From positions 1-64,000 of the IMG/VR virus record IMGVR_UViG_3300037054_000079: a stretch of 64,000 nt of DNA, one strand, 5' to 3'. The notes beneath the pieces were generated by a model. That model was not told the origin of the DNA, searched no databases, and was given only the letters and a program-made list of their open reading frames with translations. Origin of the DNA: a virus. The translations under genes were made by a program, and so were the position numbers. Below are positions 7,862 to 13,302 of the stretch, piece by piece (the stretch's first letter is position 1; the number at the start of each line of letters is the position of its first letter).

Positions 7862-9511
7862 TTAATACTTCTTGTTAGCCGAAGCACCTTTCGGTCCTAA
7901 TTTTCTTTTTAGCGGAACCGGCGAGCCGCGCACGTGCGGCGTGACCGGGACGTTCGCGTTCGGCGGGATCATCGGCGCAGTTGGGTTCGGCGGTGCCTGA
8001 GTTGGATCGCCGGGATCGTCGCCGCTGCCTTCCGTATCAAGGAACGACTCGTCAGTTACCGTTTGCTGCGGCCCGACCATTGAGCCAATCAGTGTCTCCG
8101 CCTCGTCCTCGATCTGTTTGGTCTCTTGATCGAAGTCCATTTCGGTCATGTCGTTGAGCCGCATCATGCGGTGCATCGACTTGAGCGACAACGGCAGACC
8201 AAGTTGCTTGGCTTGCATGAAGGCGAGCAGCGCGGCTCCGGCGACGTTGGTGTCGGCGAAGTCGGTCGTCGGCTCTACACTCACTTCGTCCGGGTCCTCA
8301 CCGACCCACTGTGCGGCGTATTTGAGCGCCTGTTCCAAACCCGCTCCCGCCGTTTGCGCGGTTGCCGAGATCGTGGTCGTGCGCGCCGCGACGCGGATAC
8401 GCAATGCCTCGCCACTTTCGCCGCGCGCATTGCCCACATCCATAAACGAGACGCCGAACGACGCGGCTATATCCGAGTCATTCTTGAGAGATTGACGCAT
8501 TTCGCCAAGCCCCGTCGCTGAGACGCCGATGTATTTGGCGTCGCCGCCGATCTTGACTGAGATCAAGCCCTTGTTGCCGACGCGCAAGTCCGTCCCGTCA
8601 TCGCTTGGGTTCGCGCCGACGAGGACAAGAGTTTGCTGGCCCTGCATGTAGAGGGTCTGCCGATAGTCCGCCTCGCCGCGATAGATCGCGAGTGCGAGGT
8701 TGCTCAGCCCGAGCAGCGGGGGGACTTCCGGCTCAGGTACAAGGTCGTTCGCTCCGATGAAGACGAACGGGATATCTTGAAGCGTGGTGCCACCAATCTG
8801 CGGAACGATAAAATCGTTCGGGACTGGCATTGACATATCGTTGACTTTGACGCAGATCGAGAACTGATCGGTCGGCTCAGGGCGCGTCCATCCGCTTTCC
8901 AGTGCGTCAGGAATGCCACGAGACAAGACGCGATGCTTGCGCTCAGTGACCCATGTAAAGCCTTCACGGCGAAAGCCGCTCTCGTCGAGCACGACGAGAT
9001 CGAGCATGTTGCGCCCCTCGTTGAGCTTACCGGCGTCCCAATTGATGATGCGCTGCGGATTGTAGAATGAGATGTACGGCGTCGCCTGATCCACGTCCGC
9101 GCCAGTCGGCACGTCCACGAGCAAACCGCAGCGGCCATAGGTGAGTTGCGCCTCGTTGATCCGGCGCAACAGCATTTGCAGACCCTCGCCTTGAATTGTC
9201 GCCTTGTTCATCATACTGGCGAGCTTCGGCGGCAGCGTAATCGTGGCGGGCTTCATGTGCATGATGCCGACCATGGCTTTCACGGCATCACGGACGCAAT
9301 CGTGAAAGACAGCGCGCGTCAAGTATGCGTCGTAATCTTTCCAGCCCGGAGCCATCGAGGATGTCATACCATCACTCACCATCGCTTCGGTCGCGGGCAG
9401 ATATGTGATACGCTTCTTCTTGACCTCGCGCTCACCGGCATAGGTATCCGCCATTTGCAGCCAACTTCCGACTTGCTCAACGTAATTTGGGTGCTTATCG
9501 TCAAGACTCAA
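7862..9511 (-). CDS. Portal protein (DUF4055-like)
   Basis: HPNY..W..M.DTYAGE..VK....YLP, YLTRA.F, IPFVFIG, PPLLGL.NL...YR..ADY, ESGEALRIR; TTG start after GGAGG; follows TerL. Confidence 0.88.
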   Translation of the reverse strand: MSLDDKHPNYVEQVGSWLQMADTYAGEREVKKKRITYLPATEAMVSDGMTSSMAPGWKDYDAYLTRAVFHDCVRDAVKAMVGIMHMKPATITLPPKLASMMNKATIQGEGLQMLLRRINEAQLTYGRCGLLVDVPTGADVDQATPYISFYNPQRIINWDAGKLNEGRNMLDLVVLDESGFRREGFTWVTERKHRVLSRGIPDALESGWTRPEPTDQFSICVKVNDMSMPVPNDFIVPQIGGTTLQDIPFVFIGANDLVPEPEVPPLLGLSNLALAIYRGEADYRQTLYMQGQQTLVLVGANPSDDGTDLRVGNKGLISVKIGGDAKYIGVSATGLGEMRQSLKNDSDIAASFGVSFMDVGNARGESGEALRIRVAARTTTISATAQTAGAGLEQALKYAAQWVGEDPDEVSVEPTTDFADTNVAGAALLAFMQAKQLGLPLSLKSMHRMMRLNDMTEMDFDQETKQIEDEAETLIGSMVGPQQTVTDESFLDTEGSGDDPGDPTQAPPNPTAPMIPPNANVPVTPHVRGSPVPLKRKLGPKGASANKKY

Positions 9512-10034
9512 TTTGGCCTCCCACTGGATTTGCAACACGCTTCATCCACGAAGCGATTGCTTCATGTTCATCAGCGGTGCCGTCACTCTTTAGCTGGTTC
9601 GCGCGCCAACTCACGATGAAAACATTTCCTTTGACGTAACCCCGCGAGTTATCTTTCCGGTCAAGGGACGCCAAACTATATCGGGCCGCATCACGCGGGT
9701 CCCATCCTAACCTAGTCTCATAGACCAACCTCAATCCTAGAATTGGACAGTAGACAGGAAGCGGCAACAAATCCGCTTCTTGAAGATTGAACTCAAGTCT
9801 GCGCTTCTTCGCACTTTTCCGTGCAGTCGTGAGAAGTCTTTGAAGCGGCGGCCTTCCGTGATACCAAGCATCAAATTCTGCTTTGTGGCGCTCAGGATTT
9901 TCATTGCGACGTTTCGCACACCAATCAATGTTCTTTTGGTGGCTGTGCGGACTAGCATCATACCGCGCTCTCGTAGCGCGCCCCTTCGGCGTTACCGCGT
10001 AGATAGCTTGCCGTTCTGTGTGAGTCATCGACAT
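9501..10034 (-). CDS. HNH-type homing endonuclease
   Basis: CPILG..ASLDRKDNSRGYVKGNVFIVSWRAN. Confidence 0.8.
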   Translation of the reverse strand: MSMTHTERQAIYAVTPKGRATRARYDASPHSHQKNIDWCAKRRNENPERHKAEFDAWYHGRPPLQRLLTTARKSAKKRRLEFNLQEADLLPLPVYCPILGLRLVYETRLGWDPRDAARYSLASLDRKDNSRGYVKGNVFIVSWRANQLKSDGTADEHEAIASWMKRVANPVGGQIES

Positions 10035-10049
10035 CCCAAGTTCACTCCA

Positions 10050-12437
10050 TTAAATGTGTCGGCTTATGACGCCGCGCGACTCATACCGAAGTCTATACCG
10101 AGTCATGTCGCCGCAGTTGCGGACAAGAATGCCACCCTCAACTGAGAAGGTGTGATTTGTGGGGACTGTCAAGCAATAGACATCGCGTCTATCTAGCAAG
10201 TTTTCGACGCCGACGCAAGTCACGCGCCTTGCATCGCCCGCTACAGAACTTTGCATCGTTTCGGCGCATATAAGACGCCTTGAAATATTCTCCGCACTCT
10301 TTGCAATGTAGCCCGACGCGCTTCTCAGCAACCGCCCGAACATGCTTTTCGTAATTATCGGAGTGCCATTTGCGTCCTTGCTTTGACGCATGCCATGCGG
10401 CGGCAGCGACTCGCGCGCGACCGAGATATTTCCTACCGCGCTCACCAAACTCTTTTCCGTGGTAGTGAACTCCAAAATGCTCTTTAACGGTAAGGCATTC
10501 AAGCTCAGTGCTCTCGTTCCTGTCCCGAGTAAACCGATGATGGATATGATGCCCATCCGGCACAGGTCCGTTATGGTGCTCCCACACTTGGATATGAAGG
10601 CGAACGCCTTTTCGCTGGAAATATTTCCCGCAAAGATAGTATCGAACTCCGTCGAACTCTTGGATCGTGTGGCTGATAACGATTGGCTGCATAGGACTTC
10701 CTTTCCGAGAAGGTCCTTAGCGTAACACCATTCATCTAAATCCACAAGGTATTTTTCGTCCGGCGTGCAGACTATTGACTGACCGCCTGAAAAGGTTAAT
10801 CGCACGACTTGGGCCGCTTTTCGCGTGAGCCGGGCGTCTTGATATGACTCGATCCGACTGACCGAATGAACATCTCCCGACTGCGGCAACTGCTCAATCG
10901 GGACTTGACCGCTAGGCAAGTCAACAAGAGTCCCGGCGGCAAAGCAGTGGTCTTCCGCCTCAGTGTCCACATCGTCGATTTTTACTTCATCCCTTGGCAG
11001 CACCGGAACAGTTTGCAACCATTGCTCGCAATTGCTGCAAATAAACAGACCCGGTATTTCACGATATCCGTTCGGCGGTCGCTTCGTTGCCTTGAGCCAT
11101 CGCCGGAGTTGCTCCCATCCTTGCTCGCGTGAGTGCGGACCCTTGTCCGCAGGCTCCCACAGGATGCCTCGGTGGTGGACGCCGTTATACACTATTGGTT
11201 TGGCAAAGTCATTAGCAATGCACACCCCATTATTATCGTCGAAAATGCCGGTGTCTGCGGGACCGCGTTTGACCCGGTTACGCTTGCCGTCTTCTGCGCG
11301 CCAGCCCCACTCTACCTCACGTTTCACGATGCCTTTGGCGATATCCTCGACCAGCATCCGCGACCCCTCGTTACGCTGCCCGCGCCAACCGTACCACTCT
11401 TGAATGAGAAACAAGTCGCCCCGAACAGTGGCGCGAACGCTACTGTCCGGGAACGTCAAGTCAGTACCATCGCTCTCCGCGAACCATCCGACTGAGAACG
11501 GTTTCGATGAGCCATAGTCGAAGGCGCGAGTGATAGTCCAAGTCGGGGGGACTTCGAAAGGCGGAACGACAACAATTGATTTATACTCATACCAAATATC
11601 GTCGAACATGCCGCCCGCGACGATATCCCAATCGCCGTCGAGCCATGCGCGGCGCTCGCTCTCGTTGCGCGCGGCGGCGATAATCCGGTTCTTGTATTCC
11701 GGATCGGTATGCAGTAGCAGCTTGTTCTCGTCGAGATGGCCGTGCACGGCGCGGCGCGGCGGCTCGCTGTGGCCTTCCGAGTCAAGCGAACCTTCGATCA
11801 GCGGACCGATGATGTGGCCCGGCGGCACGGGCAAGCGGTAGCGCAGCTTGACCCAATTGTGCCCGACGCCATATGGATTGGTCGTGGCGCGGACTTTGAG
11901 GGGGATACCCGGCGCAGTTGAACGTAGACACGAGAACATGGACTTGAAGCACTTGTCGTCAGGCCATGTCGTTAATTCTTCCCACCCGATCCATGGATAG
12001 TTGTGACCGTGGTAGTTGCTGTATTGCGATGGCACTTCGAAGTGGCGGAAGTAGAGCCGCTCGCCCGTGGGAAACTCCCACTGATATTTCATTTCGTTGT
12101 AGAGCGCGCCGGGACAGAACCGCCTAAACCACTTCTTGCTTTTCTCGATCACGTCGCTCAACTGCGGATGCGTCTGCCGGAATAGGATGCCGCGCCATTC
12201 AGCGCCGTAGCCTTGCCCGACATGCTGATAGAAATCCATGAGCAGCGCGTCAGTCTTGCCGGGGCCGCGCGTGCCTTCGTATAGAACTTCGGTAGTTGAG
12301 AAAGAAAGAAATGCCGCTTGCGAGCCGGGCTGCGCGGCCCACGCCACTTGTATTAGTTTTCCATCGTCGCCAGTGATGAATGGAACGTATTCATTGCCCA
12401 CAAGTTTGAACTTTTTTACAGTCGGGAACTTAGACAT
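10050..12437 (-). CDS. terL: Terminase large subunit containing an intein
   Basis: Walker A GTRGPGKT, Walker B WIGWEELT, ATTNPYG, nuclease FDYG and EDH/CGD..RY split by the intein. Confidence 0.93.
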   Translation of the reverse strand: MSKFPTVKKFKLVGNEYVPFITGDDGKLIQVAWAAQPGSQAAFLSFSTTEVLYEGTRGPGKTDALLMDFYQHVGQGYGAEWRGILFRQTHPQLSDVIEKSKKWFRRFCPGALYNEMKYQWEFPTGERLYFRHFEVPSQYSNYHGHNYPWIGWEELTTWPDDKCFKSMFSCLRSTAPGIPLKVRATTNPYGVGHNWVKLRYRLPVPPGHIIGPLIEGSLDSEGHSEPPRRAVHGHLDENKLLLHTDPEYKNRIIAAARNESERRAWLDGDWDIVAGGMFDDIWYEYKSIVVVPPFEVPPTWTITRAFDYGSSKPFSVGWFAESDGTDLTFPDSSVRATVRGDLFLIQEWYGWRGQRNEGSRMLVEDIAKGIVKREVEWGWRAEDGKRNRVKRGPADTGIFDDNNGVCIANDFAKPIVYNGVHHRGILWEPADKGPHSREQGWEQLRRWLKATKRPPNGYREIPGLFICSNCEQWLQTVPVLPRDEVKIDDVDTEAEDHCFAAGTLVDLPSGQVPIEQLPQSGDVHSVSRIESYQDARLTRKAAQVVRLTFSGGQSIVCTPDEKYLVDLDEWCYAKDLLGKEVLCSQSLSATRSKSSTEFDTIFAGNISSEKAFAFISKCGSTITDLCRMGIISIIGLLGTGTRALSLNALPLKSILEFTTTEKSLVSAVGNISVARESLPPHGMRQSKDANGTPIITKSMFGRLLRSASGYIAKSAENISRRLICAETMQSSVAGDARRVTCVGVENLLDRRDVYCLTVPTNHTFSVEGGILVRNCGDMTRYRLRYESRGVISRHI
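10116..10946 (-). mobile_element. Intein (277 aa) in the TerL nuclease domain
   Basis: Begins CFAAGTLV; block B CTPDEK; block F VYCLTV; ends GILVRN followed by Cys +1; removal restores EDH-CGDMTRY. Confidence 0.88.
10189..10692 (-). CDS. HNH endonuclease nested in an alternative frame inside the TerL intein
   Basis: RLHIQVWEHHNGPVPDGHHIHH..NESTELECL...EH and C-terminal CKEC..FCSGRC; own SD (GGAAAGGAAG) before ATG. Confidence 0.8.
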   Translation of the reverse strand: MQPIVISHTIQEFDGVRYYLCGKYFQRKGVRLHIQVWEHHNGPVPDGHHIHHRFTRDRNESTELECLTVKEHFGVHYHGKEFGERGRKYLGRARVAAAAWHASKQGRKWHSDNYEKHVRAVAEKRVGLHCKECGEYFKASYMRRNDAKFCSGRCKARDLRRRRKLAR

Positions 12438-13302
12438 GCGCGCTATCCCCGGACTTCCTGTGAAAGAGTTTAAGTGATGCGGATATCTTTTCCCGAGTCT
12501 CCCCTGAAATAAACTTACCCTTCTGCGCCTTCGACATATTTATGAGCGCGCCGGGCGTCGCTTTTCGTCCGGTATTGGCGTCAGATATTTTTGCACAGTG
12601 TTCTTCGGAGAGGGGCACGCCACGACGAAGATCAGCCGACAGCTTAATCAACTGCGACATATCCCGCCCGATCCCCGTTCCTTTCGCTTTATGAGTGGCA
12701 GATATTTTTTCGTTGGTCTCTATTGAGTGCGATCCGAGAACCCGCCCCTTGTTAGCCGTGCCAATCTTTGCTTTGGTCTCCGCTGAATGTTTATACCCGC
12801 GCGCCTTCCGAGTTGCGACTATTTTTGCAGTGTGTTCGGGCGTGTGCTTCTCGCCAAGTCTTGCCGCCGACATTCTTGCGCGCTGCTCAGGGGTGAGCTT
12901 CTTTCCATTTCTGCGACGCGCCGCCACCCGGTTAGCAATATGCTCAAGAGATTGCTTTCGTCCCTTGTGAGTTTTACTAGCCGCTGCTGCCAACTTCACA
13001 CGAGTTGATGGCAATGGATCGCGACCGCCGCTGCCACCCGCCGCTAGATTGTATCCGTTGGGCCATCGCGTGTTGAATGCCTCAATGGCTTGTTCCTCAA
13101 GCTCATAGATATATTCGTGACTACCACACGCGAGTACGCGGAAGCTCGCGGCGTCGCGGCCATAGTGCCGGATCGCATCGCCAATCTTTGATGCAGTTAT
13201 AGGGTGATGACCCCATCGGTCCCGCACATTTTTTGAGACGCCGATATACGACTTCTCACCAACCGTGATACTGTATAAGTAGTGGGGTTTTGACGTTTCC
13301 AT
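12430..13302 (-). CDS. GIY-YIG homing endonuclease with NUMOD3 repeats
   Basis: YLY..SYIG, R..H, GYN..GG and repeated HSxETxxKIS/GRK motifs. Confidence 0.85.
   Translation of the reverse strand: METSKPHYLYSITVGEKSYIGVSKNVRDRWGHHPITASKIGDAIRHYGRDAASFRVLACGSHEYIYELEEQAIEAFNTRWPNGYNLAAGGSGGRDPLPSTRVKLAAAASKTHKGRKQSLEHIANRVAARRRNGKKLTPEQRARMSAARLGEKHTPEHTAKIVATRKARGYKHSAETKAKIGTANKGRVLGSHSIETNEKISATHKAKGTGIGRDMSQLIKLSADLRRGVPLSEEHCAKISDANTGRKATPGALINMSKAQKGKFISGETREKISASLKLFHRKSGDSAHV

Follow-up and report, generated by a model that had tools for sequence, protein, structure and literature searches.

A nested HNH gene in a terminase intein: a probable composite selfish element in a family of phages

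The gene for the large terminase subunit (terL) of the virus recorded in IMG/VR as IMGVR_UViG_3300037054_000079 contains an intein whose frame is open from end to end, and within this intein, on the same strand and in another reading frame, lies a gene for an HNH endonuclease. The question that this locus raises is what kind of element the two overlapping genes make up, and how both of their frames have been kept. The stretch of DNA that was analysed, referred to below as the window, comprises positions 1 to 64,000 of a 96-kb viral metagenome-assembled contig with an estimated completeness of 90%, throughout which terL is found in a single copy. The evidence set out below makes it likely, as a mechanism for the whole family of related loci, that the element is a composite selfish one, made up of a class-1 intein in terL and of an independently translated HNH gene nested in it. 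Our confidence in the activity of the window copy is lower than in this family-level mechanism, because a catalytic residue of the intein, the His of block B, is replaced by Glu.

Identity of the intein and of the nested gene

Both ends of the intein are exact, Cys1 of the sequence CFAAGT being encoded at 10946 and the Asn of ILVRN, which is followed by Cys, at 10116. These ends are fixed independently by the intein-less TerL of a near database relative (P0013). The two proteins, 83% identical over 496 residues, align as far as AEDH and again from CGDxTRYRLRYESR onwards, so that P0013 rejoins precisely at the insertion point; the alignment with the TerL of Brevundimonas phage Poludnitsa breaks in the same way (up to AEDH, resuming with CGD...RY). 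The insertion is located between His497 and the native Cys of the conserved nuclease-domain motif AEDH/CGD, 21 codons from the end of terL. An initial annotation of the locus had placed an intein with an open frame of 277 codons at 10116-10946, and the open reading frames (ORFs) and the empty-site allele bear this out to the nucleotide.

The insertion matched the Pfam family Intein_splicing with an E-value of 4e-8 and 33.5 bits, slightly below the cut-off of 35.8. The residues C1, the Thr of block B, N277 and the +1 Cys are all present in it, C1 and N277 being invariant in an alignment of 44 inteins from related loci. This alignment and another of 33 HNH proteins, also from related loci, were used to build AlphaFold2 models. 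In the model of the intein frame, residues 1-90 and 240-277 reached pLDDT values (predicted local distance difference test) of 86-98, and residues 94-236 remained mostly below 50. Foldseek matched the model to the Ssp DnaB, Npu DnaB and gp41-1 mini-inteins with a probability of 1.0 and template modelling (TM) scores of 0.7-0.85. By descent and by modelled fold the insert is an intein, with a HINT fold predicted at its two ends only. A group I intron, which was considered as another identity for the insert, was rejected, since the insert has blocks A, B, F and G as well as the HINT fold, and its frame is not interrupted.

The two splicing lobes are about 150 codons apart, and it is in this interval, the canonical position of an in-frame endonuclease, that the HNH gene is found, flanked by the splicing blocks and in a frame different from that of the intein, whose own frame runs past it uninterrupted. 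The C-terminal lobe shares its first 41 nucleotides with the 3' end of the HNH gene, 38 of them preceding the stop codon and the other three being that codon. Ser, Leu, Ala, Ile and Thr are abundant in the product of the intein frame in the middle part, in agreement with the Ser/Thr/Ile-rich composition that had been noted initially, and no confident fold was predicted for it. Two invariant Gly columns of the intein alignment, at residues 185 and 194 of the window intein, stand inside this otherwise unconserved linker and reflect, shifted by one base, the invariant W-H...G...W-H motif of the HNH protein.

The nested ORF had been described initially as an HNH gene at 10189-10692 with its own Shine-Dalgarno sequence and ATG. 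This description holds: the start codon is the ATG at 10690-10692, a Shine-Dalgarno-like motif precedes it (Table 1), and the ORF matches the HNH endonuclease family phrog_15471 from end to end (E 1.2e-25). Its score in the Pfam family HNH_3 is 23.8 bits for a cut-off of 24.8, and the homologue from Clostridium phage phiCDHM19 scores 45.9 bits. The window protein is 45-52% identical to its homologues and retains their invariant His, Asn, Trp and Cys columns. The invariant residues of the 33-sequence alignment include H33, H52, N59 and the Cys4 positions, with H51 and H72 almost invariant; the window protein has all of these residues, and all 14 invariant columns of the family are present in it. 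The AlphaFold2 model of the HNH frame has a mean pLDDT of 94.9, and its top structural match, in a wide VIA search, is I-HmuI (1u3e; Z 7.6 over 109 residues, root-mean-square deviation 5.3), the next match having a Z of 5.1; its C-terminus resembles a zinc ribbon of the YacG type. As modelled, the nested protein is an I-HmuI-like HNH_3 nuclease with a C-terminal zinc ribbon.

Table 1. Features of the terL locus in the window.
Feature	Position	Strand	Evidence
terL, large terminase subunit precursor including the intein	10050..12437	-	ORF of 795 amino acids; matches to Terminase_6N and to TerL families phrog_2/979
N-extein, TerL residues 1-497, last residues AEDH	10947..12437	-	Alignments with intein-less TerL break at residue 497
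Intein, 277 codons (TerL residues 498-774), Cys1 to terminal Asn	10116..10946	-	Alignment of 70 enclosing ORFs; empty-site allele
N-terminal splicing lobe, intein residues 1-90, blocks A and B	10677..10946	-	pLDDT 86-98; conserved C1, T6, T61
Block B, T-P-D-E; catalytic His of relatives is Glu (GAA) here	10755..10766	-	Sequence
Shine-Dalgarno-like AAGGAAG, 4 nucleotides 5' of the HNH start codon	10697..10703	-	Sequence
Nested HNH gene (putative homing endonuclease), 167 amino acids, -1 frame relative to terL/intein	10189..10692	-	phrog_15471, fold, invariant residues
C-terminal splicing lobe, intein residues 240-277, blocks F and G, end ILVRN	10116..10229	-	pLDDT 94-98; conserved V256, V275, N277
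C-extein, 21 residues from the +1 Cys (CGDMTRYRL...) and stop codon	10050..10115	-	Aligns to the C-terminus of P0013

Recurrence of the layout and selection on the two frames

A profile search of viral contigs rendered 452 relatives of the HNH protein, and the best 80 of them, together with isolates, gave a set of 88 loci for analysis. In 70 of the 88 the HNH gene is nested in an ORF of 700-850 amino acids, and the alignment of the enclosing ORFs placed the intein at the same terL site in every nested case (extein ..EDH, intein C...(H/S)N, extein C..RY). In nearly all copies, 85-100 intein codons precede the start of the HNH gene; a few have a later start, the extreme being locus L053 with about 180. 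Its frame relative to the intein is -1 in 66 of the 70 nested copies, the window counted, and the other alternative frame in three; in no copy is it in frame with the intein. The preference for -1 is explained by the number of stop codons that would have to be removed, since the HNH genes carry about 5 in the favoured frame versus 12-15 in the other. The three copies in the other alternative frame (loci L031, L054 and L058) have no stops versus 8-13 expected, which indicates that nesting probably arose, or was re-set, more than once.

Search of a phage collection by tblastn with the HNH protein gave matches in 18 records, including those of phiCDHM19 and of Rhodobacteraceae phage LS06-2018-MD07, in which the match lies under a terL annotation and in a different frame. 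The lineages concerned range from AT-rich Clostridium phages to GC-rich proteobacterial phages. In Clostridium phage phi CD119 (locus L007; AY855346, 778-2595) a short 'ter2' (778-1746) and a hypothetical ORF3 (1897-2595) are annotated, the counterpart in the related phiCDHM19 being one intein-bearing terL of 799 amino acids with a nested HNH gene; in phi CD119, terL has probably been annotated wrongly or contains frame errors. Megablast of the window terL against the phage collection gave no match, single-protein searches of viral and metagenome contigs gave no close relative of the window HNH, and the search with a full-length intein relative (P0003) as query returned only intein-less TerL proteins.

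The nested ORFs begin at a conserved N-terminus (M..I.S.TIQEF.G.RYY), as do the free-standing homologues, and most of them are preceded by GGAGG- or AAGGAG-like motifs. A local hairpin at 10693-10720 (minus strand) pairs the Shine-Dalgarno sequence of the window HNH gene (GGACCUUCU...GGAAGUCC), which could tie HNH initiation to ribosomes crossing terL; this hairpin was no better than those of shuffled sequences (z -1.19), and no significant RNA structure was found there.

Stop codons of the intein frame were counted across the HNH region in 52 non-redundant nested copies, with 17 free-standing homologues as a comparison. There are none in any of the 52 nested copies, the mean for the free-standing homologues being 5.35, and synonymous shuffling in genomes with 30-35% GC gave from none to 3 stop-free sequences out of 300. 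Chance is excluded, at the level of the family, as the reason for the open intein frame. Substitutions between nested pairs were distributed over the HNH codon positions in the order 3 > 1 > 2 (1:2:3, e.g. 22:8:36, 46:29:77 and 68:52:127), and protein identity in these pairs was 0.55-0.87 in the HNH frame versus 0.22-0.75 in the intein frame. The HNH periodicity of the substitutions and the absence of stops in the intein frame lead us therefore to conclude that, in the family, purifying selection acts on the HNH frame, and that nothing more than freedom from stops is maintained in the intein frame.

Free-standing HNH genes of the same family follow an intein-less terL directly, 60-130 bp downstream of where the intein would be inserted, examples being those of Pseudomonas phage PAE1, Brevundimonas phage Poludnitsa, CL2 and loci L026, L034 and L038. 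Nested and free-standing copies are interleaved in the HNH tree, the well-supported branches of which force at least three switches (12 by parsimony). Among phage records, a TerL homologue is found in 592 and this HNH in only 18. Neither intein nor HNH is present in YuA, which belongs to the genus of PAE1, in RDJL3, which has the closest TerL of an isolate (60.6%), or in 74 of 75 complete metagenomic TerL relatives that were chosen regardless of HNH. The nearest database relatives of the window have an empty site (P0013), a mini-intein (P0002) or full-length inteins (P0003 and P0004, in which the nested ORF was deduced from length). The mini-intein of P0002, at the same terL site, lacks 128 codons (residues 405-532 of P0003) and keeps the first 17 or so codons of the overlap region, so that it looks like a deletion derivative without the HNH body. 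In loci L033 (3015-3053) and L035 (4001-4039) the HNH frame meets a stop after 12 codons and the intein frame of 276 codons is still open, which looks like a decay stage of the element. To judge from the sequences, these sporadic alleles form the pattern expected of a homing element in gain, decay and loss.

The initial annotation had proposed that a free-standing HNH gene invaded a mini-intein whose frame was kept open. The existence of free-standing relatives, the interleaved tree, the shared N-terminus and the open frame all fit with this interpretation and support it; the order of events is the conjectural part of the proposal, since the only mini-intein allele found looks like a deletion derivative.

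Other nuclease genes are found next to terL in the window. A homing-endonuclease gene of the GIY-YIG type with NUMOD3 (12430-13302, minus strand; phrog_314, E 1.5e-39) is the immediate upstream neighbour of terL, and its last 8 nucleotides overlap the terL start. Between terL and the portal gene, whose start (9538) it overlaps, there is a gene for an endonuclease of 177 amino acids (9501-10034, minus strand; phrog_3322, E 9e-28, with weaker matches to endonuclease VII and HNH PHROGs). This second free-standing nuclease occupies the position at which other phages have the free-standing form of the nested HNH. Three nuclease genes, the GIY-YIG, the nested HNH and the 177-residue endonuclease, therefore flank or invade terL.

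Proposed mechanism and alternative explanations

In the composite element that we propose, ribosomes translating terL would read through the HNH gene in the intein frame, giving rise to a linker with no confident predicted fold that would be kept only stop-free, and the two HINT lobes would fold and splice TerL. Initiation at the internal ATG would render free HNH, which would nick or cut the intein-less terL of co-infecting phages near the insertion site, and repair off the intein-bearing allele would copy the intein and the HNH gene jointly. Translation of the HNH gene, its target and splicing are what we infer from sequence data.

Several observations weigh against the composite element. 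Taken alone, the open frame of the window is only moderately unlikely to be due to chance (P about 0.02-0.2): in the window's own long ORFs, 2.4% of the stretches of 167 codons are stop-free in the +1 frame, and for the window HNH gene P0 was 0.056 by back-translation and 0.20 by synonymous shuffling. Shuffling of this gene alone is a weak test because its codon choice is already adapted, and the free-standing homologues and the window's own genes were preferred as nulls. Selection on the HNH frame is demonstrated for the family and not for the window copy itself, the best HNH identity to a relative with DNA sequence being 52%. The structural match to I-HmuI is below Z 8, its Foldseek E-value is only 0.46, and no significant Foldseek match of the HNH model was obtained in the PDB. 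The Pfam scores of both the intein and the HNH protein are just below the curated cut-offs. A promoter-like signal specific for the HNH gene was not found, the sites rendered by the promoter and terminator scan being no more than expected by chance.

To these observations the splicing residues have to be added. The initial annotation was right in reading block B as TPDE and the penultimate residue as Arg. At the block B position, His is found in all 69 other nested relatives and in the three nearest database proteins with an intein (P0002-P0004), so that Glu is unique among about 72 relatives, and two substitutions would be needed to turn its codon, GAA, into one for His. The penultimate position, in block G, is variable, being occupied by His, Ser or Ala in the relatives. 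The His of block B usually assists the first acyl shift. The splicing competence of the window copy is uncertain because of the Glu at this position, and its splicing may be weak or absent.

It could be the case, therefore, that the window element is decaying, or defective in splicing through the His-to-Glu change, as the unique Glu, the Arg in place of His, Ser or Ala, and the decay stages seen in the family (the early HNH stops in L033 and L035 and the lost HNH body of P0002) would suggest. This would imply either that TerL tolerates an insertion of 277 residues situated 21 residues from its C-terminus or that this viral genome is a dead end. We regard a defective copy as rather unlikely, in view of the fact that it has kept C1, the Thr of block B, the Asn at the end and the +1 Cys, that both frames are open, that every invariant HNH residue is retained, and that terL is present only once in a genome about 90% complete. 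Moreover, one report (PMC6333167) describes the block B His as highly conserved and not universal among active inteins, and its loss as compensable by the extein context in at least one studied intein.

A different role for the nuclease has also to be considered, namely that the HNH protein is not a homing endonuclease and serves the terminase as a packaging cofactor, as HNH proteins do in cos phages of the HK97 type, its gene being located in terL for co-expression. The HNH family is always found in or beside terL, and the idea was raised by the authors of the brucellaphage study for their own nested HNH (PMC4422536). It appears improbable to us: the sporadic distribution weighs against an essential packaging cofactor, HNH being missing from very close TerL relatives (YuA versus PAE1, RDJL3, P0013 and the 74 of 75 metagenomic relatives), and the protein is an HNH_3, I-HmuI-like nuclease with extra domains and not of the small PF01844 type. 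In addition, it is located in the endonuclease loop of a mobile intein, and copies with a broken HNH and an intact terL frame occur.

Programmed -1 ribosomal frameshifting would yield a fusion of the N-extein, the N-terminal part of the intein and the HNH protein, the start of the HNH gene itself being unused. The -1 frame of nearly all copies would fit with it, but this preference is explained more simply by the fewest stops to be removed, and three copies are in the other frame. The start codon is exactly at the N-terminus of the free-standing homologues, usually behind a Shine-Dalgarno sequence. In the window, the HNH frame is open for just 8 codons 5' of the ATG, and a slippery site of the type X XXY YYZ is absent there, so that frameshifting is disfavoured and can be given very little credit. 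As for an assembly or sequencing artefact, in which two compensating indels would have shifted an in-frame HNH domain, the initial annotation had kept it as an alternative and the window is a metagenome-assembled contig, but it is hardly credible any longer, being excluded by the finding of the layout in more than 50 distinct and independent sequences, including the isolates phiCDHM19 and LS06-2018-MD07, by the lack of in-frame HNH in all 70 nested copies, and by the avoidance of stops in the intein frame, which would be pointless if the frame were unread.

Within the composite element, two further proposals are possible and, taken jointly, tentative: that the out-of-frame layout is a stable, selected design, and that the His-to-Glu intein splices by a compensating mechanism. 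The first is based on the fact that none of the 70 nested copies has been resolved to an in-frame fusion in spite of HNH divergence down to about 30% identity, and on the switches, at least three, between the free-standing and the nested state. If it were true, uncoupling the dosage of the nuclease from the synthesis of TerL would itself be advantageous.

Comparison with known systems and implications

The supposition in the initial annotation that similar alternative-frame cases exist in other phage inteins is correct, and the novelty that it implied for the layout does not stand, since this is already in the literature (PMC4422536; bioRxiv 10.1101/2025.01.02.630785). An out-of-frame HNH in a brucellaphage terL intein was stated in Virol J in 2015, and the GenBank record is annotated accordingly (PMC4422536). 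As in the window, the terL intein of brucellaphages Tb and Pr (Perisivirus, NC_019446 gp07/gp08) contains an HNH-superfamily gene on the same strand and in another frame. However, the Tb intein is in the ATPase domain (TerL residues ~175-506) and that of the window at the nuclease-domain site AEDH/C; the Tb HNH is of the PF01844 type, with N-terminal zinc ribbons, and has no detectable similarity to that of the window (BLASTP E 0.04); and its frame is +1, whereas that of the window HNH is -1.

On the other hand, Gosselin, Arsenault and Gogarten described inteins of actinophages, in several cases within terL, whose nuclease resembles endonuclease VII and is encoded in 'frame 3', and proposed invasion by a free-standing homing endonuclease (bioRxiv 10.1101/2025.01.02.630785). 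The terL of Gordonia phage Affeca has the same design as that of the window, the same relative frame ('frame 3') and an unstructured middle in the intein frame, but its nuclease is an Endonuclease_7 (PF02945, 70 bits) unrelated by BLASTP to the window HNH, its TerL is of the family PF04466, and the insertion is in the ATPase motif TRWHEDD. The actinophages differ also in having high-GC hosts, for which open alternative frames are less telling. Since the nuclease, the site and the TerL family are different from those of the published cases (Tb HNH, Affeca endonuclease VII), the window lineage can be taken to be independent of them. No paper on an I-HmuI-like HNH_3 nuclease at the AEDH/C nuclease-domain site was found in the literature. 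Out-of-frame nucleases are also described in a 2026 preprint, for a cyanobacterial dnaX intein, and in a 2025 paper, for an HNH gene within a non-intein insertion of a methylase. APSE-1 is not confirmed as a further case: its RefSeq record has an HNH gene (P46) annotated within the DNA polymerase gene P45, but Pfam matched no intein in P45 and no HNH in P46.

Other systems share parts of the design. In the fractured genes of Dassa et al. 2009 (PMC2677866) a free-standing endonuclease gene occupies the endonuclease position of the intein, with short coding overlaps, but the host gene and the intein are split in two and splice in trans, whereas the window has an open frame and a single precursor. 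I-HmuI, the HNH nicking homing endonuclease of Bacillus phage SPO1, resembles the nested protein, as modelled, in that the HNH motif comes after an N-terminal DNA-binding part made of beta-sheet; it differs in having only 17% identity, in belonging to a group I intron and not to an intein, and in being devoid of the C-terminal YacG-like zinc ribbon. Collaborative homing between a free-standing endonuclease and an endonuclease-less group I intron was reportedly described by Zeng, Bonocora and Shub in 2009 in cyanophage psbA and in T-even phages. There, the free-standing nuclease gene neighbours a conserved gene, and its target is the insertion site of a splicing element by which the carrier is protected, the difference being that splicing is of RNA in that case and of protein in this one; by analogy, collaborative homing is a plausible route to the composite element.

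The family to which the window belongs adds a third, independent and much larger lineage of inteins with the homing endonuclease as a separate overlapping gene. Thanks to its many AT-rich members, the stop-free intein frame speaks clearly for selection, as it could not in the high-GC cases from actinophages. Gene callers merge or miss ORFs of this kind, so that terL annotations hide a nuclease gene. Moreover, all stages are present in the sequence data, including the empty site, the free-standing HNH beside terL, the nested HNH, the broken HNH and the mini-intein, and the model for the origin of inteins in which a nuclease invades a splicing element is testable with the cultured phages PAE1, YuA and phiCDHM19.

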